In this document: positions 5,200 to 64,000 of the stretch, piece by piece
How positions within the stretch are numbered: the first letter of the stretch is position 1
How the letters are laid out: every line of letters begins with the position of its first letter
From: Candidatus Nanopelagicales bacterium
GTDB taxonomy: Bacteria; Actinomycetota; Actinomycetes; S36-B12
Direction: 5' to 3'
Assembly: GCA_040266055.1 (NCBI GenBank)
Contig: JBDQFC010000002.1
Coordinates: forward strand, 6,219 to 70,218
DNA: 64,000 nucleotides
Notes under the pieces: model-generated
The model's database searches: none
Told to the model about the DNA's origin: nothing
Seen by the model: the letters and a program-made list of their open reading frames with translations, nothing else
Made by a program: the position numbers and the translations under genes

Positions 5200-6096
5200 G
5201 TGTCAGGGCCCATGACAGGTGTCCATGCGGCGGTGATCCCTGCAGCCGGGCTGGGAACGCGGTTCCTTCCTGCGACCAAGGCGATGCCGAAGGAAATGCT
5301 TCCGGTCGTCGACAAGCCGGCGATCCAGTTCGTGGTGGAGGAGGCGGTTGCCGCGGGTTTGGACGACGTCTTGTTCATCACGAGTCGAGGAAAGCGTGCG
5401 CTCGAAGATCACTTCGACCGCAATACCGAGCTCGAGGTTGCGCTCGCGGAGAAGAACGACACCGACAAACTTGCGATCACCCAAGAGTCGACCGATCTCG
5501 CGCAAATCCACTACGTGCGCCAAGGTCAGGCGCTTGGACTCGGCCATGCGGTGTTGATGGCAGAGAACCACGTCGGAGATCAGTCGTTCGCAGTGCTTCT
5601 CGGTGACGATCTCATTGACGAGCGCGATCCGATTCTCCCGCGCATGATTGATGTGCGTGAGCGCTTCGGTGGCTCGGTAATTTGCCTGATGCGTGTTCCA
5701 CGTGAAGACATCTCTCTTTACGGGTGCGTCGCGGTGCAACCAACGGACGACGACGATGTCTTTGACGTAACGGACTTGGTTGAGAAGCCACCGGTAGATG
5801 AAGCGCCCAGTGATTACGCGATCATCGGCCGATATGTGCTCGACCCCGCTGTGTTCGCGGTTCTTCACAAGACGAAGCCTGGCCGCGGCGGTGAGATCCA
5901 ATTAACGGATGCTCTCGTTCAATTGGCAACGATGCCGGCTGCCAAAGGCGGAGGCGTCCGGGGAGTGGTCTTCGACGGTCGGCGCTATGACACTGGCGAC
6001 AAACTCAGCTACCTCAAGGCAGTGATCCAACTTGCGACGGAGCGTGACGACATCGGTGCGGACCTTCGTGAGTGGCTTTCCGAGCGGACGTTCTAG
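5200..6096 (+). CDS. galU: UTP--glucose-1-phosphate uridylyltransferase
   Basis: AVIPAAGLGTRFLPATKAMPKEMLPVVDKPAIQFVVEEA N-terminal signature. The start could instead be ATG 5212. Confidence 0.9.
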   Translation: MSGPMTGVHAAVIPAAGLGTRFLPATKAMPKEMLPVVDKPAIQFVVEEAVAAGLDDVLFITSRGKRALEDHFDRNTELEVALAEKNDTDKLAITQESTDLAQIHYVRQGQALGLGHAVLMAENHVGDQSFAVLLGDDLIDERDPILPRMIDVRERFGGSVICLMRVPREDISLYGCVAVQPTDDDDVFDVTDLVEKPPVDEAPSDYAIIGRYVLDPAVFAVLHKTKPGRGGEIQLTDALVQLATMPAAKGGGVRGVVFDGRRYDTGDKLSYLKAVIQLATERDDIGADLREWLSERTF

Positions 6097-41780: not shown

Positions 41781-42048
41781 GGATCAGCAGATGAGCGAAG
41801 CCCAGGCTGTCGACCAAGCAAGCAGCTCGGGCGATGAATTGGTGGCACTCCTGGCCAAGCGTGGAAAGAAGGGGCGTGCTCGATCGACATCGATTCTCAT
41901 CGGTGTCCTGGTGCTGCTTATCGGAATCTTCATTGGCATCGGACTCGGCCGCGCCACCGCACCCGATTCCAACAGTGGCCCCGGCGGCTTTTCCCAGTCC
42001 GACGAACGGCCCCGAGGTGGTCCCTTCCGTGGGGGTCCGCGCGATTAG
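41773..42048 (+). CDS. Small single-pass membrane protein, translationally coupled to the MacB-type permease
   Basis: 91 aa. The ATG overlaps the permease stop. One TM (ILIGVLVLLIGIFIGIGLG) and a Gly/Pro/Arg-rich tail. No family recognised. Confidence 0.4.
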   Translation: MSEDQQMSEAQAVDQASSSGDELVALLAKRGKKGRARSTSILIGVLVLLIGIFIGIGLGRATAPDSNSGPGGFSQSDERPRGGPFRGGPRD

Positions 42049-42419
42049 CCCCAAGAACCGTCGGTGACGAGGCCGTTATCGACGGTGAGAGTCAGACGGT
42101 CGGTTCGATAGTCCATCGTGACTGCCTGAGGCTCGCCGTCAATAGTTCCTAACCGCCAGACGTAGCCGGCTTCTTCGATTGCGGTGGTCGCCTCGTCCTG
42201 CGGCATCGGCTCGGCGATGAGCTCTTCGAGGAAGGTCACCTGCTCGGGGGTGATGTTCATATCCGTTTCCTCTTCCGCACTTTGGCTGGATTCCTTGCTC
42301 GGTGTCGGCACGTTGGCTGCGCTGGAATCGTCAGTGCCTGATGAGCACCCGGCCAGTGCAGCAGCACCGAGGACGATCGCAGCGAGGACGGTGGCTACGC
42401 GGGATGCATGGGTAATCAT
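42045..42419 (-). CDS. Lipoprotein, peptidase-inhibitor I78 family
   Basis: Lipobox LAGCSS. C-terminal AVTMDYRTDRLTLTVDNGLV resembles the I78 signature. Confidence 0.55.
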   Translation of the reverse strand: MITHASRVATVLAAIVLGAAALAGCSSGTDDSSAANVPTPSKESSQSAEEETDMNITPEQVTFLEELIAEPMPQDEATTAIEEAGYVWRLGTIDGEPQAVTMDYRTDRLTLTVDNGLVTDGSWG

Positions 42420-43240
42420 GATTTCTCCGGTTTCTTATTGCGTGATCGCGCGATGGCGATGATCACGAAGACGATGACGGTAATGAATCCCGCGATGGCA
42501 AGGAAGGGGATAAGGAATCCGACTGCGATGATGGCTCCGGCGGTCAACGACAGGAACGCATTCCAACCGTTTTCTAGCCCGCCCAAGAAGTCCGGTGATA
42601 CTCCGGGTCCCACGTCGCGCTGGTCTAAATAGATGTAGGCGGTTGACATCTCCACCTGCCGGGTGAGGTAGTCACGTCGAGCGGTCAAGGACTCTAACTC
42701 GGCCTGACGATTGGCGAGCTCACCTTCTACAGCAATCAGATCGGCGACCGACTCCGCCTGGCGCTGGAGTTCCTCAAGTCGGGCAATGGACTGCTCGAGG
42801 GTGGCGATACGCGCTTCCACGTCGATCACTTCCACGGTTACGTCCTGTGAGTCGATGGTGCTGCTCTGGACTTCTCCGAGCATGGCCACCGAATCCAGGA
42901 GTGCGTCGAGGTTGACGGCCGGAACCCGAATGGTGAGGCTCGCGCTGGCGTCGTCGTCGTTTCCGTAGACGCTCTGGTTTTGGATGAATCCGTCGAGATT
43001 CGAGGCCGCATCCTCGATGTCGGACATCGAGGTGGAGACGTCTTCGACCTCCATTGTGACGTTCGCGGTTCGGATGATCTGCTCGCCCATCCGGACACTC
43101 GCAGAATCATCCATCGATGCGGACTCGGCCGAGACTCCGGATGGCTCGGCGTAATCGACGCTTGTATTGCCACACCCGGCAACCATGCCTAGTGCAAGCG
43201 CGGCTACGCCGAGCCCGAGAAACTTCTTCCTCACGTCCAC
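42416..43240 (-). CDS. DUF4349-like lipoprotein with coiled coil and C-terminal TM
   Basis: Lipobox VAGCGN. Central LTIRVPAVNLDALLDSVAMLGEV...coiled coil. C-terminal TM segments. Confidence 0.5.
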   Translation of the reverse strand: MDVRKKFLGLGVAALALGMVAGCGNTSVDYAEPSGVSAESASMDDSASVRMGEQIIRTANVTMEVEDVSTSMSDIEDAASNLDGFIQNQSVYGNDDDASASLTIRVPAVNLDALLDSVAMLGEVQSSTIDSQDVTVEVIDVEARIATLEQSIARLEELQRQAESVADLIAVEGELANRQAELESLTARRDYLTRQVEMSTAYIYLDQRDVGPGVSPDFLGGLENGWNAFLSLTAGAIIAVGFLIPFLAIAGFITVIVFVIIAIARSRNKKPEKS

Positions 43241-43294
43241 ACATCTTGGACGTTCCAGACATCGCGTCGGGTCCTTGATTCGGTCACGGTTTGG

Positions 43295-44479
43295 TCACTG
43301 TTGACGGGCGAGCAACTGCTTTCGGTAGTCCATGAGGTCCTTGCTCCGGTTGACGCCGACAACACCCACGAGTTCCCCGTCCCTGCGGTACTCAACGATG
43401 CAGTCCCCGTCCCAGTCGCCATCGACGAGGACAGGCTCGCCAAGACTCGGCATCCCGTACGACTGAATGTTCAGGTCGTATTGATCACTCCAGAACGAGG
43501 GCAACGCGGAAAACGGGCCTCCGTGGGGTTCGGCTCCGGCTAGCTCGTCGGCCAACGTGCGACCTGCATGGCGCCCCATCTCCGTCGGCATGTTCCAGTG
43601 CTCGATGCGCCAGGGCCCACCTGGGAAAAGCGCATTGGGATGGCGCGCGATGTCTCCGACCGCCACGACGGGTGCGGCAGAGCCGATCACCTGCAGGGCC
43701 TCGTCGACGAGGACGCCGTCGACGAGGTCGAGGCCATTACCCTCGAGCCACTCCACATTCGGAACCGAACCGACGGCTTCCAACACGATCGTCGCGGGAA
43801 TCTCGGTGCCGTCATCCAATCGAACGCCGGTAACGCGGTCGTCGCCAAGGAATTCCGCAACGGTGCGTCCCAAGTGGAACGCGACACCCTGTGCTTCGTG
43901 TCGAGCGCGCATCGCCGCACCAAATTTCGGACCGAGTGGCCGGACCATGGGTTCGTCGTCCAACGCCACTACGTCAACGTCGGCCCCGAGCTTGCGAGCA
44001 GTCGCTGCCACCTCGCACCCGATGAAGCCGGCGCCCATGATGACCAGGCGGCTGCCGGGGCCGAGGGCTGCCCGCAGGTCAGCTGCGTCGTCGGCATTGC
44101 GAAGGAGGAACCGACCTTCCGTCGGTCCGGGAATGGGAAGTCGCCGTGGCCGGATACCGGTTGCCACCACCAGCCCAGCGAAGGGCAGAACGCTCCCGTC
44201 TTCCAGGCAGACCGTTCGTTCCGTGAGATCGACGGAGGTGGCGCCGGAACCGAGTCGCCACTCGACGTCGTCGATCGAGGAACGCCGTCGGAAGTGGAGA
44301 TCCTCGACGTCGACTCCGCCCGCGAGTGCCTCTTTCGACAGGGGTGGTCTGTTGTAGGGCAGATGTGGCTCCTCGCCCACGATGACCAGGTGTCCTTCGT
44401 ACCCCGCTCCGCGGAGTGCCTCAGCGGCGCGTAGGCCACCGAGGCCTGCACCAACGATGACTACCTGGTCTGTACTCAT
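43295..44479 (-). CDS. FAD-dependent ferredoxin--NAD(P)+ reductase (putidaredoxin-reductase-like)
   Basis: VVIVGAGLGGLRAAEALR and LVIMGAGFIGCEVA dinucleotide folds. ATG 44479 overlaps the ferredoxin stop (ATGA). Confidence 0.85.
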   Translation of the reverse strand: MSTDQVVIVGAGLGGLRAAEALRGAGYEGHLVIVGEEPHLPYNRPPLSKEALAGGVDVEDLHFRRRSSIDDVEWRLGSGATSVDLTERTVCLEDGSVLPFAGLVVATGIRPRRLPIPGPTEGRFLLRNADDAADLRAALGPGSRLVIMGAGFIGCEVAATARKLGADVDVVALDDEPMVRPLGPKFGAAMRARHEAQGVAFHLGRTVAEFLGDDRVTGVRLDDGTEIPATIVLEAVGSVPNVEWLEGNGLDLVDGVLVDEALQVIGSAAPVVAVGDIARHPNALFPGGPWRIEHWNMPTEMGRHAGRTLADELAGAEPHGGPFSALPSFWSDQYDLNIQSYGMPSLGEPVLVDGDWDGDCIVEYRRDGELVGVVGVNRSKDLMDYRKQLLARQQ

Positions 44480-44670
44480 GACTCGACGAAAGAAATCGCC
44501 TGCATTGGGCACACGTCGGCGGCGCTCTCTACGTCATCACGGCGTTCATCGGCAACCTCGGCGACGTACTGCAACTTGCCGTCGTCGTCGAGTTGAAAGA
44601 CATCCTCGGCCTCAAAGCAGCACTGTCCGTAGTGCTGACACTTATCCATGTCGACGGTGATCTGAATCAT
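44476..44670 (-). CDS. Small ferredoxin (single 3Fe-4S-type cluster)
   Basis: 64 aa, CQHYGQC...CP. AAGGAG Shine-Dalgarno upstream of ATG 44670. Confidence 0.8.
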   Translation of the reverse strand: MIQITVDMDKCQHYGQCCFEAEDVFQLDDDGKLQYVAEVADERRDDVESAADVCPMQAISFVES

Positions 44671-44717
44671 TTCGCTCCTTTGGTCAGTATCAGTGTGTTG
44701 ATTCGGAGGTAAGGGGA

Positions 44718-45593
44718 TTACTTCTCTTCGACCAAGGACGGGTAAAGATCCTTGGACGGTGTGCGGATCCCTCGAAATTCCCAATCGCCACCCTGGGCGG
44801 TGGAGATGACTTCCTCGCTCTCGGTTGGCTGGGCGCCGACATCCGTCCGGATGGCGGTCGGGCCTGCGACGATGTGGTTGCGCAGTGTTCCGAGCCCTTC
44901 GACTTCCACCTCGACGACGTCGCCTGGGTAGACGGTCCGTGAATTGGCGGGTGTTCCACTGAAGAGGAGATCACCGGGTTCCAAGGTGATAGTTCTCGCG
45001 ATGTCCGCAACGAGGTAGTTCATGTCCCATTCCATCTCGTCGGTCGAGGCATCTTGCTTGACCTCACCGTTGACGATCGTGCGAATGCGCTTGCCACGGA
45101 AGTCCCAGTCGGTGACTACGCCGGGACCGATCGGAGCGAGCGTGTCCGAGCCCTTGACGCGCAGCATCGACCCGGCATCGGTGTCCCGGAAGTCATGCAG
45201 CCCGTAGTCGTTGCCGACCGTGTAGCCGAGGATGTAATCGCCAGCCTCCTCGGGTGAGACATTGCGGCAGGTGCGACCGATCACGATGACGATCTCGCCC
45301 TCGTAGTTCAACCACTTGCATCCATCAGGCCGCACCACGGCAGCGTCGTGGGAATTCAGTGCGGTGATGGGTTTGTGGAAGTACGTGGGGGCCGATGGCA
45401 ACTTGGTCATGAACTCCTCGGTACGCGAGGAGTAGTTCAGGTGAACGCAGATGATCTTGCTTGGCTCCACAGGGGGCAAATGCACAGCCTCCGCAATCGG
45501 GACCACTCGGCCGTCTCCGGCAACGAGGTTGTCTCCTTCCCGTGTGACGGTGCAGGGATAGCCGTCCACCAAGATTCGTCGGAACTCACTCAT
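44718..45593 (-). CDS. Fumarylacetoacetate-hydrolase-family enzyme (HpaG-like isomerase/decarboxylase)
   Basis: KIICVHLNYSSRTEE...YEGEIVIVIGR...GTPA FAH-fold motifs. ATGA overlap with the dioxygenase gene. Confidence 0.75.
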   Translation of the reverse strand: MSEFRRILVDGYPCTVTREGDNLVAGDGRVVPIAEAVHLPPVEPSKIICVHLNYSSRTEEFMTKLPSAPTYFHKPITALNSHDAAVVRPDGCKWLNYEGEIVIVIGRTCRNVSPEEAGDYILGYTVGNDYGLHDFRDTDAGSMLRVKGSDTLAPIGPGVVTDWDFRGKRIRTIVNGEVKQDASTDEMEWDMNYLVADIARTITLEPGDLLFSGTPANSRTVYPGDVVEVEVEGLGTLRNHIVAGPTAIRTDVGAQPTESEEVISTAQGGDWEFRGIRTPSKDLYPSLVEEK

Positions 45594-46498
45594 GCCGCGC
45601 CCACCTTCTTCTGGCCGGCCGTCCAGCCGGCTTTGGGTCGTTCGAACCACACGTGGACTTGACCCGTGCCAACCGAGTTCTCGTACTGGCTATAGAGCTC
45701 ACCGGGAGCAATGACGTCGCCTTCCCCGAGAGCTCCCATCATCATCAGGTAATGCGCGAAGCGCGCTTCCGGCTTGTACTGCAGGAAATCCGGCATGGTG
45801 TCGATCACCGACTTGTGGTCGCCCCGGGCGAACCAGTCCAGACGCTGCATATCCGCTTGGTAGGCCTCGGGCGTGAAAATGTGCTTCGGATCGCTGGCTT
45901 CGTGGTCGCGAATCTCCCGAAGTGGCCAGAAGGTGTGCGACAGCGCACCTGAGGCGATCAGGAGCACCTTGCGGTCGGTCTTCTCGATTGCCGCCTTGAC
46001 TGCCCGCCCTGCACGCAGGAAGTCTTCGCTATCACCCGTTTGGCACACGCTGATGGATATCCATCGCTTGTCATCGAGTCCACGACCAAGGAAGTCCCAC
46101 AGGTTGATCGTCGCGTAGAAGATCGGCAGGTACGGGTCGTCGATGGCGGTCATCCACGTTCCGGCGCCGGGCCCCTCTTCTTGGATCGCTTGGGCCAGCT
46201 CCGGATCACCGGGGAAGTCGTATGGGATTCGTGTCATGCCGCGGGGAAGTTCCTCGGACGTGAACAATCCGGCGCGACGATCCTGAGCCGTGACGACAAA
46301 CTCCACGGTGGTGGCCCAATGGGAGTCCATCACGATCACGGTGTCGTAATCCAGGGTTTCGAACTTGTCCTTGCGGAGGTTCCGAAGGCCCGGAACGAGT
46401 GAGATTTCATGACCTTCGTTCAATTCCTTGCGGATGTTCTCCGGCAGCATGATCGTCGGTACGTGTGCCAGGAGCGCCGCTCCTACAACTTCACCCAT
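45590..46498 (-). CDS. LigB-superfamily extradiol dioxygenase, HpaD (3,4-dihydroxyphenylacetate 2,3-dioxygenase)-like
   Basis: MGEVVGAALLAHVPTIML, DTVIVMDSHW, ASGALSH and SVGTGQV parallel E. coli HpaD as recalled. Start at ATG 46498. Confidence 0.75.
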   Translation of the reverse strand: MGEVVGAALLAHVPTIMLPENIRKELNEGHEISLVPGLRNLRKDKFETLDYDTVIVMDSHWATTVEFVVTAQDRRAGLFTSEELPRGMTRIPYDFPGDPELAQAIQEEGPGAGTWMTAIDDPYLPIFYATINLWDFLGRGLDDKRWISISVCQTGDSEDFLRAGRAVKAAIEKTDRKVLLIASGALSHTFWPLREIRDHEASDPKHIFTPEAYQADMQRLDWFARGDHKSVIDTMPDFLQYKPEARFAHYLMMMGALGEGDVIAPGELYSQYENSVGTGQVHVWFERPKAGWTAGQKKVGAA

Positions 46499-46502
46499 AT
46501 CC

Positions 46503-47966
46503 CTATTCCTTCCAACCGCTCGGCGCGTAAACCGTGTTCTTGACGTCTGCATAGAAATCGAATGACCAGTGGCCACCTTCGCGGCCGATACCGGATTTCC
46601 TAGAGCCACCGAACGGTGCTCCAAGATCACGCACGAAGAAGCAGTTGACCCAGATCGTGCCGGCGACCAAGTGCTTGCAGAATTCTTCAGCGCGCGCCCT
46701 GCTTCCCGTGACGACACATGCGGCAAGGCCGTAGTCGGTTCCGTTCGCGAGCGCGAGTCCCTGTTCGTCGGTGGCGAATGTCTGCATCGTGAGAACCGGC
46801 CCGAACACTTCTTCGCGGAGGATTTCGCTGCCTGATTCGGCGTCGCGGATGAGTGTGGGGGTGAAGTAGTGCGGACCTAGTTCGCCGTGAACGCTTCCTC
46901 CGTATTCGACGGTTGCGCCATCGGACACCGCGCGATCGACGAAGCCTTGGATGCGGGCGACATGCTCGAGATGGATGTTCGGACCTATCTGCGTGTCCTC
47001 CTCGCGAGGATCGCCTTGCCGGATCTGGGCTGCGCGCTCAGCGAAGCGCTCTGCGAACGCGTCTGCGATGCTTTCCTGGACGAGTAGGCGTGTCCCCGCG
47101 AGGCACACTTGCCCGGCGTTGTCGTATTGCTCAATCGCTAAATCGATCGCAAGATCAAGGTCCGCGTCGTCTAATACGACGGTGGGTGACTTTCCGCCAA
47201 GTTCGAATGAACACGGAATTAGGTTCTCAGCGGCGGCCTTGGCCACGAGCTTTGCGGTGGGAACCGATCCGGTGAAGCAGATACGGGCCACCCGGGGATC
47301 GGATGTGAGCGCGGCACCTGCCTCAGGTCCAAGACCTTGAACCACGTTGAATACCCCGTCGGGTAGTCCGGCCTGTTTGGTGAGATCGGCGAAATACGAC
47401 GCGGTCAGGGGAGCCCACTCCGGTGGCTTGAGAATGACGGTGTCTCCGGCGGCGAGCGCGGGTCCGATACGCCAGGTGGCAAGCATCAAAGGCGCGTTCC
47501 AGGGCGTGATGATCACCGTTGGCCCGGATGGATCCCATGAGACGTGGTTTTCGTGTTCGCGGGTCTCCCACACTGGGTACGTGAGTTTCTCGACTGCGTA
47601 ATCGGCGAAGAACCGGATGTTCATCGCCACCCGGGGCATGACGCCGCGGCGATGCGAGCGCAAGAGGGATCCGTTGTCGCGCGTCTCGAGTTGGGACAAG
47701 GACTCGACGTTTTCCTCGACGAGATCGGCGAGTCGGCGCAGGACGACCGCGCGCTCGCTGGGGCTCCAGCGGGACCACTCGGTGAATGCGGCAACTGCCG
47801 CAGTCACTGCAGCGTCGGCCTCGGAGGTGCCACCGCGATGGATCTCAGCGATCACCTGGTTGTCGATGGGAGAGACGTCGACGAAGGTCTCCGGGGAGGA
47901 GACTCGGCTTCCGCCGATCCAGTGGCGCGTGTCCACCTCGACGCCAGCGACCGTCACAACATCCAT
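46503..47966 (-). CDS. NAD+-dependent aldehyde dehydrogenase, HpaE/XylG-like semialdehyde dehydrogenase
   Basis: FELGGKSP, catalytic Cys region GQVCLAG and C-terminal VNCFFVRDLGAPFGGSRKSGIGREGG. Start at ATG 47966. Confidence 0.8.
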   Translation of the reverse strand: MDVVTVAGVEVDTRHWIGGSRVSSPETFVDVSPIDNQVIAEIHRGGTSEADAAVTAAVAAFTEWSRWSPSERAVVLRRLADLVEENVESLSQLETRDNGSLLRSHRRGVMPRVAMNIRFFADYAVEKLTYPVWETREHENHVSWDPSGPTVIITPWNAPLMLATWRIGPALAAGDTVILKPPEWAPLTASYFADLTKQAGLPDGVFNVVQGLGPEAGAALTSDPRVARICFTGSVPTAKLVAKAAAENLIPCSFELGGKSPTVVLDDADLDLAIDLAIEQYDNAGQVCLAGTRLLVQESIADAFAERFAERAAQIRQGDPREEDTQIGPNIHLEHVARIQGFVDRAVSDGATVEYGGSVHGELGPHYFTPTLIRDAESGSEILREEVFGPVLTMQTFATDEQGLALANGTDYGLAACVVTGSRARAEEFCKHLVAGTIWVNCFFVRDLGAPFGGSRKSGIGREGGHWSFDFYADVKNTVYAPSGWKE

Positions 47967-48017
47967 GGAAATCCCATCGTTAGGGCCGGTTGACCGTGCC
48001 CGTCGTCCGTGCCAATT

Positions 48018-48035
48018 TCGTTCGGAGCCTAACGA
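48018..48035. promoter_or_regulatory. Dyad TCGTT-N8-AACGA (site 1 of 3), upstream of the aldehyde dehydrogenase gene
   Basis: tTCGTTcggagcctAACGAa, read directly, in the 91-nt intra-operon gap. Confidence 0.45.
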
Positions 48036-48057
48036 ATAGCGGCGGCTCGCGAAAGGG

Positions 48058-49242
48058 CTACCAGCGAACCGGCAGGGCTTCGGGGGCCCGAAATTCCCAG
48101 CCCCGCATCCGAACCTCATCGCCGGGATCCAGGGTGAGCCCCGGGAGTGCCTCGGCCAGGGTTTGCAGGGCGATCCTCTCCTGACCCCGGGCGAAGGCAT
48201 GGCCGGCACAGAAATGCGGCCCTAGGCCAAATGCCGCATTAGGCCGCCGGGTCCGGCGGATGTCGAAGATGCCGGGGTTGGCGAAGAGAGATTCGTCGTG
48301 GCAGGCGCTGGCGACGACGGCCCCCACCGGGGAGCCCGCAGGGATGGTGATGCCTTGGAACTCGACGTCCACCCGCGCCTGACGGGTCTGGGTGCCGATC
48401 GGGGCTACCCAGCGCAATCCTTCGTGCACCGCATCGTCCCAGCGCTCGGGTTCGGCGAGGACCAACTCCCACTGCTCGCGGTCTGCGAGCAGTCCATACA
48501 GGCACGATGCGGCCCCATGGCCCGGTTCTTGCATGCCCCCGAGGATGATCACTTTCAACGACGGCAGGACCTCGTCCACCGTGCGAGGCTCACCGGCGGG
48601 CCGACCGGTCGTCAGCATGTGAGAGATGGTCGAGTCGTCGGGCTCGAGGCGCAAATGCTCCATGTACGGCCTGAGCTCGGTGTCGATGGCTGAGGCGGTG
48701 GCGTCGTTGATCGCTTGTTTTTCTGGATCGCGTTCGAAGTTGATCGCTCCCATCGCCAGCCCGTGGAACCACTCGCGCAACGTGTCAGCCGATAGGTGGC
48801 CGAGCCCCAAGACGGCGCCCAGGCTCAGGACCGAGATGGGCTCGAAGTAGTCGGCCACGAGTTCGGCTCTGCGGTCAGCGCGGTCGAGGATGCGGGCTAG
48901 GTAATCGTCGGCGATGGGTTGGACGAGCGCGTCGATGTACCCCTCGACGGTGCGTGGTCGGTACTTGGTGTCGAGGCTGCGGCGCTTATCGAGATGGTCA
49001 TCGCCGTCTACGGTCAAGATGGTGGGTCCACCGAAGGACAGATCCAACGGGGAGCCGTCCACCACCGCGCTGAACAAGTCCGTTCGGGTTGCGACGAGGT
49101 CCACGGCGTCCGCGGAGGTAGCGAGCCACAGATTCACCGCGGGGACCCACGCGAGCGGTTCCTCGCTTCGGAGGCGGGCGTAGATGGGGTAAGGGTCGGA
49201 CTCGAGGTCCTCGACGGTGATGGATTCGGTGAAGGTGCTCAT
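48058..49242 (-). CDS. Cytochrome P450 (class I)
   Basis: Heme loop FGLGPHFCAGH and ExxR (HEGLRW). Atypical I-helix GGMQEPG. Confidence 0.85.
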   Translation of the reverse strand: MSTFTESITVEDLESDPYPIYARLRSEEPLAWVPAVNLWLATSADAVDLVATRTDLFSAVVDGSPLDLSFGGPTILTVDGDDHLDKRRSLDTKYRPRTVEGYIDALVQPIADDYLARILDRADRRAELVADYFEPISVLSLGAVLGLGHLSADTLREWFHGLAMGAINFERDPEKQAINDATASAIDTELRPYMEHLRLEPDDSTISHMLTTGRPAGEPRTVDEVLPSLKVIILGGMQEPGHGAASCLYGLLADREQWELVLAEPERWDDAVHEGLRWVAPIGTQTRQARVDVEFQGITIPAGSPVGAVVASACHDESLFANPGIFDIRRTRRPNAAFGLGPHFCAGHAFARGQERIALQTLAEALPGLTLDPGDEVRMRGWEFRAPEALPVRW

Positions 49243-49769
49243 GCGCTTCGGGTAGGTGGAACGGAGATCGTCCCCTCCTTCTCGACGGCGCGGATCAACT
49301 CGCGCAGGAATCCGGTTGCCTGCTGCTTGTCCGCGCTGCTGAGGAATCGAGTGACGTTCCGCTCTTCGGTATTGAAGTCGGGAAACAGGCGCTTCATGAG
49401 TCGTCTCCCTGACGGGGTCAAGGAGACGTCCACCAGACGACCATCGGATTTACCGCGGGTTCGCTCGAGCAGTCCTCGGCTTTCGAGCGTAGTGAGGACA
49501 CCGCTGAGCGTTGCTTTTGAGAAGCCGCCCTCTGCTGCGATCTGGCGGGTTTCGATGGGTTCCCAGATCCAGGTGACCCACAAGACCACGAACGCCGTCC
49601 AGGTGAGATCCGCCCGGGCCAGGACGGTGCGCTCGAGGTGATTGCGAACGGCGTTGGCTGCTCGGAACAGATTGGAGGCGACGGCCATGGCCTCGAAATC
49701 CAGGTCCAAGTCCCCGAGGCGAGCCGAGACTGCTGATTCGGTTTCGCTCAGGGTGTGATGTCCGGCCAT
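49239..49769 (-). CDS. MarR-family transcriptional regulator
   Basis: 176 aa with a winged-HTH core. GGAAGGAGG Shine-Dalgarno. ATGA overlap with the P450 gene. Confidence 0.8.
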   Translation of the reverse strand: MAGHHTLSETESAVSARLGDLDLDFEAMAVASNLFRAANAVRNHLERTVLARADLTWTAFVVLWVTWIWEPIETRQIAAEGGFSKATLSGVLTTLESRGLLERTRGKSDGRLVDVSLTPSGRRLMKRLFPDFNTEERNVTRFLSSADKQQATGFLRELIRAVEKEGTISVPPTRSA

Positions 49770-49821
49770 GTGGCCTCCTTCCGGGAGTCACGGTAGTCGA
49801 ATGACCAAAGTCCTTGCATCG

Positions 49822-49858
49822 AATCGTTCTGGCCCGGATAATTTGGGCCCAAACGATT
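49822..49858. promoter_or_regulatory. Imperfect 37-bp palindrome AATCGTTctGGCCC...GGGCCcaAACGATT containing the perfect 12-bp palindrome TTTGGGCCCAAA
   Basis: Read directly in the MarR/P450 divergent region. 12 of 15 arm positions pair. Confidence 0.45.
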
Positions 49859-49879
49859 AGTTTCACTCGGGAGGTCCCC

Positions 49880-51130
49880 TTGTCCACGGCCACGACTGTG
49901 ACCCTCGCCAACCTTGATCTGTTCGCCGACGGCGCCCCGTGGGCGACGTTCGATGAATTTCGCGCCTCGGATCCAGTGTCATGGAATGAGGAAGAAGCAC
50001 CGAACAAGGGTTTCTGGGCAGTAACCCGCTACCACGACATCGTCGAGGTTCTGCGCGACACCGAGACGTTCTCCAGTGAAGTGGGTGCTGTGAACCTCGA
50101 GGAACTCGACCAGAGTCAGATCGAGATTCGCAAGTCGATGCTCGAGCGCGATGGAACCCGACACCGCGCGCTTCGCAAACTGCTGCAGCCGGCATTCACC
50201 CCGAAGGCACTGACTGTCTACGAGTCGTTCTTGCGAGGGGTCACCGCGAACACTCTCGACGTCGCCCTCGCCAAGGAGCGTTTCGACTTCGTGGACGAGG
50301 TTGCCGCTGACTTTCCGATCAGAGTTCTCGCGCGACTATTGGGAGTGCCCGAGGACGACACGAATCAGTTGATCGAGTGGGGCAATCGAATGGTGGGAAA
50401 TACCGACCCCGAGAGTGCAGATGTCCTGGCATCCGATCCGGAGAGTGAGAAGTATCGTGACCTCCCATTCCGTTCTCCGGCGGCCCTCGAAGTGTTCGAA
50501 TACGGATTCGCTCTTGCGAACGAGCGCCGTGGTGGCTCGGGGGACGACCTCGTCTCGAAGTTGGTGAATGGCACTCCCATTGATGGTGTTCCCGTCGATG
50601 ATTGTGATTTCCGCAACTACTTCCTGCTTCTGGTGGTCGCAGGTAACGAGACCACGCGCCACACGATCTCGCACACGATGAATCATCTGATCAATCATCC
50701 AGATCAGATGGCGATCCTTCGCGAGGATCCGAGCAAGATCGAATGGGCTGTTGAGGAATTCCTTCGTTACGCCAGCCCGGTCTATCACTTCCGTCGTACT
50801 GCGACCAAAGACACCGAACTTGGCGGCCGAACCATCAAAACTGGCGACAAAGTTGTCGTGTGGTTCGCCTCGGGCAACCGTGATTTCGACATCTTCGAAG
50901 ACCCCTACCGATTCGATGTTCAGCGCCATCCCAACGAGCACATGTCCTTCGGCCGCGGCGGTCCACACATGTGCCTGGGCAACTCGCTAGCGCGTCTAGA
51001 AATCCGGGTGATGTTCGAGGATCTGCTCTCCCGAGACATCGAAATCGCACACGATGGATCGATCGACTATTTGCGGTCGAACTTCGTACACGGAATCAAG
51101 CGCTTCCCCGTGAAGGTGACCCGCCGCTAG
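49880..51130 (+). CDS. Cytochrome P450 (class I, CYP124/125/142-like)
   Basis: VVAGNETTRH I-helix and FGRGGPHMCLGNSLA heme loop. TTG 49880 lies 5 nt after GGGAGG. Confidence 0.85.
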   Translation: MSTATTVTLANLDLFADGAPWATFDEFRASDPVSWNEEEAPNKGFWAVTRYHDIVEVLRDTETFSSEVGAVNLEELDQSQIEIRKSMLERDGTRHRALRKLLQPAFTPKALTVYESFLRGVTANTLDVALAKERFDFVDEVAADFPIRVLARLLGVPEDDTNQLIEWGNRMVGNTDPESADVLASDPESEKYRDLPFRSPAALEVFEYGFALANERRGGSGDDLVSKLVNGTPIDGVPVDDCDFRNYFLLLVVAGNETTRHTISHTMNHLINHPDQMAILREDPSKIEWAVEEFLRYASPVYHFRRTATKDTELGGRTIKTGDKVVVWFASGNRDFDIFEDPYRFDVQRHPNEHMSFGRGGPHMCLGNSLARLEIRVMFEDLLSRDIEIAHDGSIDYLRSNFVHGIKRFPVKVTRR

Positions 51131-51831
51131 CCAGGCGCAACTCGCTCGAGGAAGGCACCCACCAGCGCGTCGGCCCGTTTACCCGCCGCGCCCTCCTCAG
51201 CACGCGTGTGCGCCATGAGCGCCTCAGGACTCTGGCCATCGCGCTCCACATGTGCGTACCCATCGGTGTCCAGCCACAACTGCAGTTCGTGAGGAGTCAG
51301 TTCCGGATGGAATTGCAGGGCAAGGTTCCTTCGCAAGGTGAACGCTTGTGAAGCGCGGCTCGTCCGAGCTATTTCGTGTGCGTCGGGCGGGAGTTCCCAG
51401 CGGTCGTAGTGAAACTGAAACCACGGACCGGCCGAGACGAGGTCGGGCTCGTCGGTGTGCAACACACTCCAGCCGATCTCGCATGAGGGAGCGGGCCCGA
51501 CGGAACCACCATGGGCACGGGCAAGCAACTGGCCACCGAAGCAGATTCCGAGGACCGGAACACCGCGGCGGTCGGCCTCGCGAAGCCATTCGAGCTCAGG
51601 GACCAGCCAATTGCCGATGGTGGCATCATCCCAGGCACCCCAGGGTGAACCCATCGGGACGAGGACGTCGTACTTGTCAAGAGATGGAAAAGTGAATTCG
51701 ACGTTGGGGGAGTAGTAGTTCTCCCCCGAGACGATCACCATCTCGTCGATTTCGTATCCCCGGCGCGCGAAGGCATCGCCGATTGGCCCAGGGGGGCTGG
51801 TGTGATCGTGCTCGATAAAAAGGGCCTTCAT
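51127..51831 (-). CDS. Class I glutamine amidotransferase-like protein (possible gamma-glutamyl-amide hydrolase)
   Basis: GICFGGQLLA nucleophile elbow and a FHPE histidine region. AGGAG Shine-Dalgarno. Confidence 0.75.
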   Translation of the reverse strand: MKALFIEHDHTSPPGPIGDAFARRGYEIDEMVIVSGENYYSPNVEFTFPSLDKYDVLVPMGSPWGAWDDATIGNWLVPELEWLREADRRGVPVLGICFGGQLLARAHGGSVGPAPSCEIGWSVLHTDEPDLVSAGPWFQFHYDRWELPPDAHEIARTSRASQAFTLRRNLALQFHPELTPHELQLWLDTDGYAHVERDGQSPEALMAHTRAEEGAAGKRADALVGAFLERVAPG

Positions 51832-51872
51832 TTCACTCCTGCGCTCGGTCTGGGCACACTAGTATCCCAAAA

Positions 51873-51890
51873 TCGTTGGGTAGCAAACGA
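51873..51890. promoter_or_regulatory. Dyad TCGTT-N8-AACGA (site 2 of 3), in the GATase / GS-like divergent region
   Basis: aTCGTTgggtagcaAACGAt, read directly. Overlaps a CCCAA-N5-TTGGG dyad. Confidence 0.45.
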
Positions 51891-51911
51891 TCAATGTGAA
51901 TTGGGGAGTCC

Positions 51912-53261
51912 ATGCACCACGGTCTTGCCGAAGTCCGCCAAAGCTTGCAGGACGACGGAATCGACGTTGTCCGACTCATCTACAGCGATGTCTTGGGCAT
52001 TCCGCGCTCAAAAGACCTCCTGGTCTCGCAATTGGAGCGCGCCGGAAGCAACGGCCCGGCCTTCTGTCAAGGCGTCTGGGTCACCAACACCCGCGGTGGA
52101 GTCTTGGATGGGCACGGCAGCATCTCGGATGGGCTCCCCGATCTGGTGACTCGACTCGATCCGTCGACCATCCGCCCGATTCCGTGGGAGCCCGGTGTCG
52201 CCTACGTGGTAGCTGACAGCTTCGAGCCCAGCGGTGAAGACAGCCCGGTAGCCCCACGGTCGGTCCTGCGGTCGGTCCTTGCCGCGTACGGTGATCGAAA
52301 CCTGTCTCCAGTGATCGGTCCGGAATTGGAGTTCTACTTCGCGCACCGCCCGGAGGGCTCCTGGGAGCGCGTTCTCAACAAGACCGGTCGGGTGTACATG
52401 ACCGGCAGCATCGTCGATCATGAGGGCCTGTTCTTGCACATGCTGCGGATGATCGATCAGTTGAACATCGGTGCCTTCGCTGGCAACCACGAGTTCTCAC
52501 CGTCCCAATACGAGATCAACTTGTGGCATTCCGATGCGCTCGATGCCGCAGATCGGACGTTCATTTTCAAGACTGCGGTGAAGGACATCGCACATCGCGC
52601 TGGAGTCAACGCGACGTTCATGGGCAAGCCGTGGAACGACGAAGGGGGCAGTGGTTTCCACGTTCACTTCTCTGTGGTCGACAGTCACGGTGAGAACCAG
52701 ATGCACGATGGCGGAGCCGGACTCAGCGCGACGGCAGAGTCCATGATTGCCGGGATCATCGCGCACGCGGATGCCCTCTCGGCGTTTACAAACCCCTCCA
52801 TCAACGCCTTCAAGCGGCTCGGTCCCGACACGTTGGCTCCGTATCGCTCGAATTGGGGTCTGGACAACCGCAGCACGATGATTCGAATTCCACCTGAGCG
52901 GGGCCATGGAACGCGTCTGGAATTGCGGATCGGGGATGCCGCTGCGAACCCGTACGTGGTTGCAGCCGCAGTCCTTGCGGCTGCTCTCGACGGAATCGAG
53001 AAGGGGCTCACTCCGCCGGCACCGCTTGAGGGTTGGACCTACGAGGATGAATCGGCAGATGTCCTGCCGATGACGCTTGAGGCGGCTCTTGATGCGCTGG
53101 CGGCAGACGAGGTCATGACGAACAAGTTGGGCGATGTCTTCGTTCAAACGTTCGTGACATTGAAACGGGACGAACTCGAGAGATACAACGCGGAAGTCGC
53201 CGACCCGGCTACCCGCGACGTGACCGATTGGGAACTCGAGGAGTACATCGAGGACTACTGA
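51912..53261 (+). CDS. Glutamine-synthetase-family gamma-glutamyl ligase (GS-like 1)
   Basis: PELEFYF, NHEFSPSQYEIN, GSGFHVHFS and NRSTMIRIP GS catalytic-domain motifs. Confidence 0.8.
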   Translation: MHHGLAEVRQSLQDDGIDVVRLIYSDVLGIPRSKDLLVSQLERAGSNGPAFCQGVWVTNTRGGVLDGHGSISDGLPDLVTRLDPSTIRPIPWEPGVAYVVADSFEPSGEDSPVAPRSVLRSVLAAYGDRNLSPVIGPELEFYFAHRPEGSWERVLNKTGRVYMTGSIVDHEGLFLHMLRMIDQLNIGAFAGNHEFSPSQYEINLWHSDALDAADRTFIFKTAVKDIAHRAGVNATFMGKPWNDEGGSGFHVHFSVVDSHGENQMHDGGAGLSATAESMIAGIIAHADALSAFTNPSINAFKRLGPDTLAPYRSNWGLDNRSTMIRIPPERGHGTRLELRIGDAAANPYVVAAAVLAAALDGIEKGLTPPAPLEGWTYEDESADVLPMTLEAALDALAADEVMTNKLGDVFVQTFVTLKRDELERYNAEVADPATRDVTDWELEEYIEDY

Positions 53262-53267
53262 TCGTGA

Positions 53268-54200
53268 CTAGCCGGTCAACTGCTCCACTCGAGTGACGAC
53301 GTCCCTGCAGAATGCCGAGTGGGCTGACCGATCGTCGATGAAGATTGATGGTTTGATGCAGAACGTCCCAACGCCAAACTGCATCTGACGCGGAATCTCC
53401 TCGAGCGCCGGCTCTAGGGGCGCGCACGCGTTGTCACTCGGGAACTCCACCCGGGTTCCTCCGACGAGCTCGAAGTCCTGCGTTGATTTCCCGTGGGGCT
53501 CAAGGGCCGCACTGAGTGAATCCAGATGGTCGTTTTCGATCCGACCAAGCGGGTGGTAGCCGGAGCCATAGGTGGCCAGTCGCCGGACTATGGCGGGGTG
53601 CACGCCCTGACCACCGAACCACAGAGCCGGCCCAGCAGCAGTGGTCGGTTTGGGGTCGACGAACGCATCGGAGAATGAGTAGTGCTCACCCGCATGACTA
53701 GCGGGAGAGTGAGCCCATACCTCACGCCAGATGGCGAGGTGCTCGTCTAGCAGTTGGCCACGCCGGCGGAAATCCACGCCAAGTGCCTGGTATTCATCCT
53801 GGTGCCAACTCACCGTCGGTTGAACGACGAGGCGACCCTCGGATAGCAGATCCAGTGTCGCGAGGTCCTTGGCCAAGGCGAGGGGATGGCGCAACGGCGC
53901 GATGAGCGCAACCGCGCCGATCCGGATGCGATCGGTGGCGGCAGCGATCGCGGCAAGGAGAATCAGGCTCGCGGGCCAGGCCGTTTCGGGATCTTGGTTA
54001 CCAGGCATCGCATAGTCGCGCGGGTTGGCCATCCGACCTTGTGAACCTGCTGACGGGCCCATCACAACGTGGTCGCTCACCATGACCATGTCGAAGCCTG
54101 CGTCCTCGGCCTCCTGAGCCATGCGTACGAGATCTCGAAGATCGCGCGGATCTGTCAACGTCCAATTCTCGGTGAGAACGCTCACCAAGCGCGCGGTCAT
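53268..54200 (-). CDS. Luciferase-like monooxygenase (LLM) class oxidoreductase, probably F420-dependent
   Basis: 310 aa, TIM-barrel LLM pattern (AEDAGFDMVMVSDHV...). The cofactor assignment is inference. Confidence 0.65.
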   Translation of the reverse strand: MTARLVSVLTENWTLTDPRDLRDLVRMAQEAEDAGFDMVMVSDHVVMGPSAGSQGRMANPRDYAMPGNQDPETAWPASLILLAAIAAATDRIRIGAVALIAPLRHPLALAKDLATLDLLSEGRLVVQPTVSWHQDEYQALGVDFRRRGQLLDEHLAIWREVWAHSPASHAGEHYSFSDAFVDPKPTTAAGPALWFGGQGVHPAIVRRLATYGSGYHPLGRIENDHLDSLSAALEPHGKSTQDFELVGGTRVEFPSDNACAPLEPALEEIPRQMQFGVGTFCIKPSIFIDDRSAHSAFCRDVVTRVEQLTG

Positions 54201-54225
54201 GTTGTGTGCCTAGGCGTGGGCCGGG

Positions 54226-55032
54226 TCAGCGGGCCTGTGAGGAGTCGTCAAGCAACGTGCCACCGGCAAACGTCACACCAACCTCGCGGTAGTAGCCGCC
54301 GATCACTTCCCGAACGGGCAGGAGTGATGCGGGCTTATCCCAGGGTGAATCGTGCAACTCGATCTCCGCGTCACCTGCCCACGGCTCGCCGAGATCCGCG
54401 TCCACTCCACCCATCGTGACGATCTGTGACAAAGACATGCCGGCGCCGGTGATCGAAGGCATGAATCGGTGATGGACCATCGGATGCCCATTGACGAATC
54501 CATTCGTGGGACTGGGCTCACGGAGGGTGACCTTCGCCGACGCCAATCGGTGATCGTAGGCCGCGAGGCTTGCCCCGAAGGTTCCCCCCGGAGCCACTCG
54601 CGGACTGGCCTTTCCATGATTGAAGGCTCGAGTCACATAGATGCTGCCCAGCTTCTTTGGATATCCCTGGAACCAGCCGCGTCCGATGGCGAAATCCGTC
54701 GTGACCCAGATGAGTTCGCACCTGCTGTACGTAACGCCCTGGTACTGGCATCTCACGACGAAGAAGGCCTCGAGATATTGCGATCGCGAAGGGTCGAGAA
54801 GTTCGGCCTTTGATGCACTGCACGATTGCCAGTCGGCCCAGATCAAGGCGACGGCACCCGGATCCTCGTCGGCGAGATCGAGATCAGGAGGCAACAGCGC
54901 ACGGACTTTGTCGACGTCGGTCCGATACTCGACCGTCAACAAGGTGCCCGAGTAGTACCACGGCATGTCGGGGACTAGGGCAGATTCGCCTCCGGGGGTG
55001 TAGGGCGGGAGAAAACCTCGGGACTCACTCAT
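54226..55032 (-). CDS. Acetoacetate-decarboxylase-family protein
   Basis: 268 aa. PPYTPGG...MPWYYSGTLLTVEYRTD N-terminus is typical of the ADC fold family. Confidence 0.65.
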   Translation of the reverse strand: MSESRGFLPPYTPGGESALVPDMPWYYSGTLLTVEYRTDVDKVRALLPPDLDLADEDPGAVALIWADWQSCSASKAELLDPSRSQYLEAFFVVRCQYQGVTYSRCELIWVTTDFAIGRGWFQGYPKKLGSIYVTRAFNHGKASPRVAPGGTFGASLAAYDHRLASAKVTLREPSPTNGFVNGHPMVHHRFMPSITGAGMSLSQIVTMGGVDADLGEPWAGDAEIELHDSPWDKPASLLPVREVIGGYYREVGVTFAGGTLLDDSSQAR

Positions 55033-55054: not shown

Positions 55055-55072
55055 TCGTTTGCTTGCGAACGA
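55055..55072. promoter_or_regulatory. Dyad TCGTT-N8-AACGA (site 3 of 3), in the ADC-like / TetR divergent region
   Basis: aTCGTTtgcttgcgAACGAa, read directly. The inner bases extend the palindrome (TCGTTTGC-TT-GCGAACGA, 7 of 8). Confidence 0.5.
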
Positions 55073-63546: not shown

Positions 63547-64000
63547 CTAGTTGGCGAACACGCGTCCGGGCAGCGATGCGATGCCGTTGACGAAGTTGGA
63601 GCGGGTGCGAACTGTGGGACCGTCCGCTTCGAAACGAATGCGACCGGCCACGATCTCTTCGAGCAGTACCCGGATCTCCATACGGGCCAGCGGCGCGCCG
63701 AGGCAGTGGTGTGGACCTTTGGCGCCGAAGGACACCTGGGGGGGCTTGATCGGCCGGGTAATGTCGAACGCCAGCGGATCTGGGAATTCCCGCTCGTCGA
63801 AGTTGGCCGACGCGTACCAGATCACGACTTTGTCGTCTTCTTTGATCGGAACGCCGGCGATCTCGGTATCCATGGTTGCGGTGCGACGCATGTGTAGGAC
63901 GGGTGTCGCGTACCGGATGATCTCCTCGACCGCCTGCTCGATCAGTTCGGGTCTTTCGTGCAGCAGTTCGAGCTGATCCGGGTTGTCCATGAACGCTCGA
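63547..64000 (-). CDS. Cytochrome P450, 3' part (5' end beyond the window end); paralog of the 49880-51130 P450
   Basis: FGAKGPHHCLGAPLARMEIRV heme loop. HMRRTATMDTEIAGVPIKEDDKVVIWYASAN parallels HFRRTATKDTELGGRTIKTGDKVVVWFASGN in the other P450. Confidence 0.8.
   Translation of the reverse strand, partial: RAFMDNPDQLELLHERPELIEQAVEEIIRYATPVLHMRRTATMDTEIAGVPIKEDDKVVIWYASANFDEREFPDPLAFDITRPIKPPQVSFGAKGPHHCLGAPLARMEIRVLLEEIVAGRIRFEADGPTVRTRSNFVNGIASLPGRVFAN

Follow-up and report, generated by a model that had tools for sequence, protein, structure and literature searches.

What does a cytochrome P450 do inside an operon for aromatic ring cleavage? The question is raised by a 64,000-nucleotide stretch of contig JBDQFC010000002.1 from a Candidatus Nanopelagicales bacterium (GCA_040266055.1; hereafter the window), part of a 2.23-Mb assembly that is 98.7% complete. 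Seven minus-strand genes, running from position 49769 to 43295, encode in order a MarR-family regulator, a P450, an aldehyde dehydrogenase (ALDH), an extradiol dioxygenase of the LigB superfamily, an FAH-family enzyme, a ferredoxin (Fdx), and a ferredoxin reductase (FdR). A preliminary description read the P450, Fdx, and FdR as one self-sufficient system that hydroxylates a ring and thus takes the place of the usual hydroxylase in a pathway for homoprotocatechuate. We arrived at a different reading, which we give a little better than an even chance: the operonic P450 is an accessory demethylase of the CYP255 family that feeds a conserved aromatic-amine LigB regulon, with two feeders leading onto one catechol.

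We assigned families with Pfam and NCBIfam models, using the curated cut-offs as thresholds, and by comparison with solved structures. About 60 related loci were retrieved and the window proteins mapped onto each, and 201 genomes of the same order were scored for a CYP255-like P450 and a LigB orthologue. The P450 phylogeny is a maximum-likelihood tree. The operon itself was as first described. The open reading frame listing and start-codon placement gave seven intact reading frames with a 4-nt ATGA overlap between marR and the P450 gene, a 91-nt gap before the ALDH gene, a 4-nt gap before the LigB gene, an ATGA overlap between the LigB and FAH genes, a 47-nt gap before the Fdx gene, and a final ATGA overlap between the Fdx and FdR genes. 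The families named earlier also hold (PF01047, PF00067, PF00171, PF02900, PF01557, PF13459, and PF07992 with PF14759), as do the motifs: the FGLGPHFCAGH heme loop of the P450 and the AHVP, DSHW, SGALSH, and GTGQ motifs of the LigB protein. The gene arrangement is not due to chance, as the order recurs across dozens of related genomes.

The top 17 solved-structure matches of the operonic P450 were all SyoA, GcoA variants, or 9ia1 (273–291 bits, full length; E values from 1e-85 to 1e-80). SyoA (PDB 8u09) came first at 291 bits (E 1e-85), and GcoA (5ncb) and its variants scored about 275 bits. The next P450 family, represented by 6g71, reached 199 bits and all others at most 125 bits. In the I helix, GGMQEPGH lines up with GAMQEPGH in GcoA and GGLQEPGH in SyoA, so that the Glu-Pro here is a trait of the family; the alignment places the Gln-Glu pair at Gln238-Glu239; the pair is kept in all homologues, down to 39% identity. 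In CYP255 enzymes, this pair replaces the usual I-helix acid-alcohol pair and is needed for activity both with O2 and with H2O2, and the known members GcoA, AgcA, and SyoA (the enzyme of 8u09) all O-demethylate lignin-derived methoxyphenols to catechols (PMC11842817). The operonic P450 is thus predicted to be an aryl O-demethylase related to CYP255 at the level of a new subfamily, and it would be expected to take a methyl group off an o-methoxyphenol rather than hydroxylate the ring as first proposed. The broader idea of a P450 as the source of the catechol remains probable; if the operonic P450 makes it, O-demethylation would most likely be the route.

The predicted pocket differs from that of GcoA. 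Two of the three GcoA pocket phenylalanines, F75 and F395, are retained as F70 and F384, and T296 corresponds to Thr286, whereas F169 is replaced by Ala166 and A295 by Gln285. These changes suggest a pocket that is larger and more polar than in guaiacol-specific GcoA, in which F169 has reportedly been engineered to alanine to admit bulkier substrates. The mapped pocket positions are invariant in all homologues with at least 50% identity, regardless of genomic context; the substrate of the P450 is therefore probably a free compound and not a glutamate-tagged one.

The distribution of the gene ties it to the LigB cluster. Among the 201 genomes, 37 carry the CYP255 gene and 57 the LigB orthologue; all 37 also carry LigB, and no genome has the CYP255 gene without it. 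The other 20 LigB genomes still carry the cluster, including the Fdx-FdR genes. The CYP255 and LigB genes lie less than 15 kb apart in 14 of the 37 genomes, and placement falls into four types: between marR and the ALDH gene (type a; this genome, G140, G112, L001, and L083), as third gene of an operon with genes for an acetoacetate decarboxylase (ADC)-like protein and a luciferase-like oxidoreductase (LLM) (type b; G044, G088, and G176), convergent after the FdR gene (type c; G070, G097, and G101), or about 13 kb away (type d; G170 and G193). On the P450 tree, the genes of each type group in a clade of their own. The embedding of the P450 gene in the operon, on which the first description relied, is real here, but the marR-ALDH position is limited to one P450 clade. 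Types a and b put the gene inside two different operons of one regulon, and one taxonomic family appears at three separate places in the tree, indicating that the gene has moved between lineages. Since it is absent from 20 of the 57 LigB genomes and varies in placement, the CYP255 gene is best described as an accessory feeder, and its distribution suggests that it was recruited repeatedly into the regulon as a late addition to a conserved cluster. In one group of relatives (L082:5765-9182), the P450 gene stands alone beside genes for a HelD/UvrD-like helicase and an L,D-transpeptidase, near cytochrome oxidase genes.

The same counts bear on the idea that the P450 is a general guaiacol or lignin-monomer demethylase that sits in the operon by chance and sends its catechol elsewhere. 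Contig C17 carries a complete catechol-type lower pathway that could receive it (two VOC dioxygenases, a hydratase, an aldolase, and an acetaldehyde dehydrogenase), and in many relatives the P450 gene is physically unlinked to the LigB cluster. Full nesting of P450 presence within LigB presence, independent placement in two distinct operons of one regulon, and a pocket unlike that of guaiacol-specific GcoA at F169 and A295 all argue otherwise, and we regard chance placement as improbable. The C17 cluster (C17:18600-32400), in which the two dioxygenase genes are adjacent, also contains an IclR-like regulator gene, a second hydratase/decarboxylase gene, an ALDH gene, and PEP-utilising (phenylphosphate-synthase-like) genes.

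What does the accessory P450 feed? The seven genes form part of a larger unit of 11–12 genes that is conserved among relatives and spans approximately 43295-55032 in the window. Its order is ADC-like, LLM, and glutamine synthetase (GS)-like genes; the divergent amidotransferase and a second P450 gene (P450b); and the divergent MarR, ALDH, LigB, FAH, Fdx, and FdR genes. The marR gene was present at every cluster inspected, and P450b was at or beside every LigB cluster inspected, including those that lack the CYP255 gene. Its best solved relatives are a CYP125 ancestral reconstruction (8vxi, E 2.4e-112) and CYP268A2. Given its presence at every cluster inspected, P450b is a better candidate for the hydroxylase's place than the operonic P450, to which that role had been given.

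The electron-transfer genes follow the cluster, not the CYP255 gene. The Fdx gene is the only copy in the genome found with this query, and the best curated models for FdR are ferredoxin–NAD+ reductases of oxygenase systems, all below cut-off. Most relatives, with or without the CYP255 gene, keep the FdR gene at the cluster end; in G200 the FdR-Fdx genes adjoin P450b and not the FAH gene. Given this retention in the 20 genomes without a CYP255 gene and the arrangement in G200, the fixed P450-Fdx-FdR system of the preliminary description does not hold: Fdx and FdR are part of the cluster, with P450b as their most likely partner, and the CYP255 enzyme at most shares them. A candidate exception, in which the Fdx-FdR genes seemed to have been lost together with P450b (G010, G114, and G009), was rejected when a whole-genome search found P450b a few kb outside the retrieved stretch.

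Genes for VanA-like Rieske oxygenases and VanB-like reductases also recur in these clusters, often directly after P450b (L061:4859-6902; L088:13526-15500; also in L035, L045, L048, L059, L063, L068, and L070). G010 and G009 have no Fdx-FdR genes at the cluster, and VanA/VanB-like genes adjoin P450b there. These genes might encode a further demethylase, or the VanB-like protein might serve as an alternative reductase. A third P450 gene, whose product is 43% identical to P450b, is followed in this genome by genes for a GS-like ligase and an amidotransferase (window 63547-64000 onward; C2:69777-74114). The three make a second copy of the triad of P450, ligase, and hydrolase genes, and the same extra triad occurs in L035, L039, L045, and L068.

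The transcription units of the 43295-55032 regulon share an operator, TCGTT-N8-AACGA. This 18-bp dyad has seven exact copies in the 2.23-Mb genome, and three of these are in the cluster. The copy just upstream of the ALDH gene is also found in L032, L046, L047, and L072–L075; that between the amidotransferase and GS-like genes is conserved in more than 15 loci; and that upstream of the ADC gene is also found in L039 and L067. The divergent region between marR and P450b holds a nested palindrome with wider spacing in the window, and exact N8 dyads in L075, L078, and L079. Altogether, the dyad, often extended to TCGTTCGG..CCGAACGA, recurs at the corresponding positions between genes in more than 20 loci. 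The MarR protein is likely to be the reader of this operator. Since the copy before the ALDH gene lies just past the P450 stop codon, the P450 gene appears to have been inserted upstream of the ALDH operator and into the marR unit, a position from which it should be switched on with the cleavage genes. Outside the cluster, a fourth exact dyad copy lies at window 5915-5932, and contigs C3, C14, and C29 hold three more. A scan of 42000-52000 for sigma-70 promoters and terminators found no site resembling a promoter and gave nothing of use in either gap (91 nt and 47 nt), as expected for an actinobacterium.

Which pathway does the ring-cleavage arm belong to? HpaD, HpaE, and HpaG form the upper homoprotocatechuate meta-cleavage module, and HpaBC normally supplies the catechol. 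The cleavage genes are indeed HpaE-, HpaD-, and HpaG-like, as previously proposed, with Hpa proteins as best curated models and best solved structures. For the ALDH, the HpaE model was best and that of 2-hydroxymuconic semialdehyde dehydrogenase next (413 bits). The LigB protein is closest to HpaD 8iq8 (E 3.5e-25), with which all four of its motifs align, and its next solved matches are 2-aminophenol dioxygenase beta subunits. An Amn-type, 2-aminophenol reading of the LigB gene was rejected and retains only a remote chance, as the beta subunits score lower than HpaD (67.6 vs 92 bits) and no alpha-subunit gene is present. A search of the literature on HpaD 8iq8 and PraA found none. The FAH protein is the most conserved in the cluster (76–94% identity across relatives); its best solved relative is the C-domain of E. 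coli HpcE/HpaG (1gtt, E 1.8e-57). It has one domain of 291 aa, and the HpaG N-domain model TIGR02305 scored 105 against a cut-off of 228.65. Since the HpaD, HpaE, HpaG, and HpaR models all scored under their curated cut-offs (Table 1), the module resembles the upper Hpa pathway without being an equivalog of it.

In line with the earlier view of a P450 in the place of the hydroxylase, the genome has no match to HpaB (PF11794). Nor did this 98.7%-complete genome contain a match to 5-carboxymethyl-2-hydroxymuconate (CHM) isomerase, HpaF (PF02962). HpaH and HpaI are indeed not in the window, as noted before, but the lower pathway is not simply missing. The cluster has, under the shared operator, a gene for an MppR-like member of the ADC superfamily, a candidate hydratase-aldolase; HpaH-like genes occur only on contig C17, within the catechol-type cluster, and an HpaI-like aldolase gene is on contig C5, both below cut-off. 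MppR performs pyruvate-aldehyde aldol chemistry, and the best solved relative of the ADC-like protein is MppR itself (4jm3, E 4.8e-46). For S. solfataricus, the role of meta-pathway aldolase has been proposed for proteins like MppR (PMC7820114).

These results allow a plain homovanillate pathway to be weighed, in which the P450 with Fdx and FdR demethylates homovanillate (or hydroxylates 4-hydroxyphenylacetate) to give homoprotocatechuate, HpaD/E/G-like enzymes break this down as the free acid, and the GS-like and amidotransferase genes are a separate matter. Such a pathway would explain why Hpa proteins are the best curated models for four genes and why HpaD 8iq8 and HpcE 1gtt are the best solved relatives; it also suits a P450 from an O-demethylase family and the Pelagibacterium P450 gene behind a TctABC carboxylate-type transporter. 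We consider it unlikely. Besides the sub-threshold scores of all four models and the lack of CHM isomerase and HpaB, at essentially all loci inspected the LigB operon comes with the GS-like and amidotransferase genes, under the same operator. Moreover, most relatives have a second gene for a C26-type hydrolase, on the opposite strand between marR and the ALDH gene, and often a gene for a pyridoxal phosphate (PLP)-dependent decarboxylase after the FdR gene. We found no description in the literature of a P450 homovanillate demethylase or of the present gene combination.

The amine-handling genes point to the substrate. A GS-like ligase and an amidotransferase in the regulon suggest an amine and not plain hydroxyphenylacetate. 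The ligase scored 268 bits against the gamma-glutamylputrescine synthetase model (NF045547), below its cut-off, and the amidotransferase gene is always divergent from the GS-like gene in relatives. In the Ipu pathway, a GS-like ligase, a P450, Fdx, FdR, and an amidotransferase-type hydrolase are combined (PMC6776027). Judged by similarity, a complete Ipu/Puu-type set, comprising GS-like ligase, amidotransferase, P450, Fdx, and FdR genes, lies within 43295-53261 and is conserved together. Many relatives also carry an amino-acid permease gene along with the PLP decarboxylase gene. Neither the second C26 hydrolase gene nor the decarboxylase gene was found in this genome with the queries used; set beside L001, L083, and 26 other loci, the cluster of the window is a reduced version, in which the CYP255 gene stands where relatives have the C26 gene. 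In relatives, the decarboxylase or FdR gene is followed by one for a 515-aa protein whose family is not known; here that gene is on contig C4.

We infer that the main substrate is a primary amine handled as its gamma-glutamyl amide, most likely of the tyramine/dopamine type. The GS-like ligase would tag the amine with glutamate, and P450b with Fdx and FdR would be the likely ring hydroxylase. The LigB enzyme would then open the ring in extradiol fashion, the ALDH oxidise the semialdehyde, and the FAH protein decarboxylate and isomerise the product. The MppR-like protein would probably carry out the hydration and aldol cleavage that fall to HpaH and HpaI in E. coli. By analogy with the formation of succinic semialdehyde in the Hpa pathway, glutamate-tagged dopamine would yield pyruvate and gamma-glutamyl-4-aminobutanal, an intermediate of the Puu pathway, and the C26-type enzyme would take off the glutamate. 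The CYP255 enzyme would provide the second entry, O-demethylating a methoxy analogue of the 3-methoxytyramine, homovanillate, or vanillylamine type to the same catechol plus formaldehyde. It would probably draw its electrons from the co-regulated Fdx and FdR, with H2O2 also possible for the family.

Beyond the order, a phylum-wide P450 search, in which four candidates were scored per genome so that P450-rich genomes may hide more homologues, recovered P450 homologues of 39–58% identity that adjoin GS-like, ADC, LLM, FAH, and ALDH genes. These came from other actinobacterial families, a Streptomyces, and a Solirubrobacterales metagenome-assembled genome (MAG). In two Alphaproteobacteria, a 55–57% identical P450 is encoded in an operon with an ALDH and a class III aminotransferase, together with a TctABC transporter in Pelagibacterium halotolerans (L172:6709-13937) and an APC permease in Mesorhizobium amorphae (L173:6445-12093). 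The pocket residues are the same in all of these settings. It is tentatively conceivable that a distinct CYP255 clade has spread by transfer among freshwater Nanopelagicales-like actinobacteria, Streptomyces, and some Alphaproteobacteria, has specialised on methoxylated compounds of the catecholamine type (3-methoxytyramine or its relatives), and feeds the glutamate-tag/LigB/MppR-like pathway. If true, this would take CYP255 biology beyond lignin monomers and would give the family a class I (Fdx plus FdR) electron supply.

The same neighbourhoods lend something to the alternative that the P450 acts on the amine side, for example by N-demethylating N-methyltyramine or hordenine-type amines to give the primary amine for the GS-like ligase or the transaminase. 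The most constant neighbours across phyla are genes for GS-like ligases, amino-acid or amine permeases, and the class III aminotransferase, with ring-cleavage genes less constant; the alphaproteobacterial carriers have no LigB orthologue; and P450s remove O- and N-methyl groups by the same kind of chemistry. However, within the order the gene is confined to LigB-carrying genomes, conservation of two of the three phenylalanines that sandwich the ring in GcoA suggests that a ring and not a side chain lies at the heme, and all characterised CYP255 enzymes are aryl O-demethylases (PMC11842817). Only a slim chance is left to N-demethylation in our estimate.

Several observations weigh against the reading we prefer, an accessory O-demethylase feeding the LigB regulon. 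P450s that share at least about 40% identity are placed in the same family, and those sharing 55% in the same subfamily; at about 42% identity to SyoA (164 of approximately 389 aligned positions, counted by hand), the operonic P450 falls at the border of the family rule and below subfamily level. The changes of F169 to alanine and A295 to glutamine relative to GcoA mean that the substrate is not readable from sequence, and for a CYP255-type P450 N-demethylation or another oxidation could be equally conceived. The CYP255 gene lies 225–710 kb from the cluster on the same replicon in three of the 37 genomes (G010, G114, and G029) and on another contig in 20, and stand-alone CYP255 loci had no exact dyad copy and no cluster genes within 10 kb. 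Because the co-occurrence counts come from related genomes, they overstate independence. No LigB orthologue was found in the alphaproteobacterial carriers (Mesorhizobium and Pelagibacterium), so that the P450 product is not always bound for a LigB dioxygenase. Finally, the known CYP255 enzymes are paired with three-domain reductases and not with Fdx plus FdR (PMC11842817). No gene for a three-domain reductase of the GcoB/AgcB type adjoins the P450 gene here; the Fer2-domain matches of the genome are elsewhere, in proteins of other sizes.

How does the system compare with known ones? The operonic P450 resembles GcoA (Amycolatopsis sp.), AgcA (Rhodococcus), and SyoA (Amycolatopsis thermoflava) in full-length similarity, the Gln-Glu pair, and the heme-thiolate loop, with GcoA it shares the two retained pocket phenylalanines, and its expected product is likewise a catechol that is afterwards ring-cleaved. 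It differs in that the electron-transfer genes are those for a 64-aa ferredoxin and a separate FdR in an adjacent operon, and in that the neighbours are amine-handling and LigB-type genes, not those for catechol ortho-cleavage or Aph-type meta-cleavage. In the catabolism of alkylguaiacols and alkylphenols by Rhodococcus, O-demethylation by AgcAB and hydroxylation by AphAB converge on meta-cleavage by AphC (PMC9062432), which matches the proposed layout of a CYP255 O-demethylase and a separate hydroxylase leading to one catechol and extradiol cleavage. In contrast to the system proposed here, the dioxygenase there is of the VOC type (type I) rather than LigB-type, the hydroxylase is a flavin enzyme rather than a second P450, and the substrates carry alkyl chains and no amine.

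The isopropylamine (Ipu) system of Pseudomonas sp. KIE171 and Arthrobacter aurescens TC1, together with the putrescine (Puu) pathway, offers the permease, GS-like synthetase, class I P450 with Fdx and FdR, and hydrolase, but acts on aliphatic amines and has no ring-cleavage module and no CYP255-type enzyme. The E. coli Hpa/Hpc system shares a single-subunit LigB dioxygenase, an ALDH, and an FAH-family decarboxylase/isomerase in one operon with a MarR-type regulator. Its HpaG has two domains where the FAH protein here has one, and in this genome CHM isomerase and HpaBC are absent, the MppR-like ADC protein and F420-type LLM are encoded nearby instead of HpaH/HpaI, and the operon is coupled to gamma-glutamyl-type genes and to P450s.

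None of the gene families is new, and there is precedent for extradiol cleavage fed by a P450 O-demethylase. What is new is the CYP255 assignment of the operonic P450, its accessory and repeatedly recruited status, its separation from the resident P450b with Fdx and FdR, and the occurrence of the same P450 clade in a transaminase-type amine operon of Alphaproteobacteria. Only three CYP255 enzymes (GcoA, AgcA, and SyoA) have been characterised, all from work on lignin and with fused reductases. A large, conserved clade tied to amine catabolism and LigB cleavage would, if true, widen the biology of the family and offer new demethylases with a different pocket (alanine at the position of GcoA F169). 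Telling the resident from the accessory P450 also corrects the reading of a recurrent, uncharacterised cluster. The gene is carried by actinobacteria that are abundant in lakes and have streamlined genomes of 1.3–4 Mb. An accessory demethylase added to their conserved aromatic-amine regulon matters for the question of which dissolved organic compounds these bacteria consume. Names among the relatives include MAG Candidatus Nanopelagicales, acSTL, and bins from Lake Mendota or Swedish lakes. One cultured relative is Longivirga aurantiaca CGMCC 4.7317, with a P450 73% and a LigB protein 67% identical to those here; Streptomyces sp. TRM68367, Mesorhizobium amorphae NBRC 102496, and Pelagibacterium halotolerans ABH-592 are further cultured carriers of the P450.

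Table 1. Genes and operator-like sites of the cluster, with positions in the window. Bit scores are against the Pfam or NCBIfam models named; values after "vs" are curated cut-offs.
Feature	Position	Strand	Details
Ferredoxin reductase, 394 aa	43295..44479	-	ATGA-coupled to Fdx; PF07992 197.7 bits, PF14759 Reductase_C
Ferredoxin, 64 aa, single-cluster, CxxYxxC...CP type	44476..44670	-	PF13459 Fer4_15 52.3 bits
FAH-family enzyme, HpaG C-domain type (decarboxylase/isomerase)	44718..45593	-	PF01557 195.8 bits; TIGR02303 201.1 vs 276.4
Single-subunit LigB-superfamily extradiol dioxygenase, HpaD-like	45590..46498	-	PF02900 90.5 bits; TIGR02298 HpaD_Fe 140.7 vs 315.95
NAD(P)-dependent aldehyde dehydrogenase, HpaE-like	46503..47966	-	PF00171 491 bits; TIGR02299 HpaE 494.9 vs 638.35
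Dyad copy 1	48018..48035		Exact match; 26 nt after P450 stop, 51 nt before ALDH start
CYP255-like P450, 394 aa, predicted aryl O-demethylase	48058..49242	-	ATGA-coupled to marR; PF00067
MarR-family regulator, weakly HpaR-like	49239..49769	-	PF01047 47.4 bits; TIGR02337 HpaR 50 vs 121.2
Nested palindrome, TCGTT ... AACGA arms with wider spacing	49822..49858		marR/P450b divergent region
P450b, CYP125/CYP268/CYP124-like	49880..51130	+	Divergent from marR; PF00067 97 bits
Class I glutamine amidotransferase/peptidase C26-like, candidate gamma-glutamyl-amide hydrolase	51127..51831	-	PF00117, PF07722
Dyad copy 2	51873..51890		Exact match; between amidotransferase and GS-like gene
GS-like ligase, candidate gamma-glutamyl-amine synthetase	51912..53261	+	PF00120 311.5 bits; NF045547 268 bits, below cut-off
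F420-type luciferase-like oxidoreductase (LLM)	53268..54200	-	PF00296 141 bits; TIGR03619 176.6 bits, above cut-off 166.9
MppR-like acetoacetate-decarboxylase superfamily protein, candidate hydratase-aldolase	54226..55032	-	PF06314 191.8 bits; TIGR04460 MppR 185 vs 380
Dyad copy 3	55055..55072		Exact match; upstream of ADC-LLM unit

P450 fusions were also seen in metagenomes (P0243, P0247, P0260, P0287, P0308, and P0316). P0243 and P0247 join a CYP255-like P450 to an NAD-binding and a 2Fe-2S domain (approximately 736 aa), and one fusion of the set, of 505 aa, joins a CYP255-like P450 to a 2Fe-2S domain alone. P0316 (1046 aa) combines a CYP255-like P450 with an FdR-type reductase and a flavodoxin, and P0308 (829 aa) combines one with a glyoxalase/VOC domain. 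They may represent self-sufficient demethylases that occur in nature, along with a fusion of demethylase and dioxygenase, or they may be artefacts of gene calling; as Rosetta-stone fusions, they are hints.

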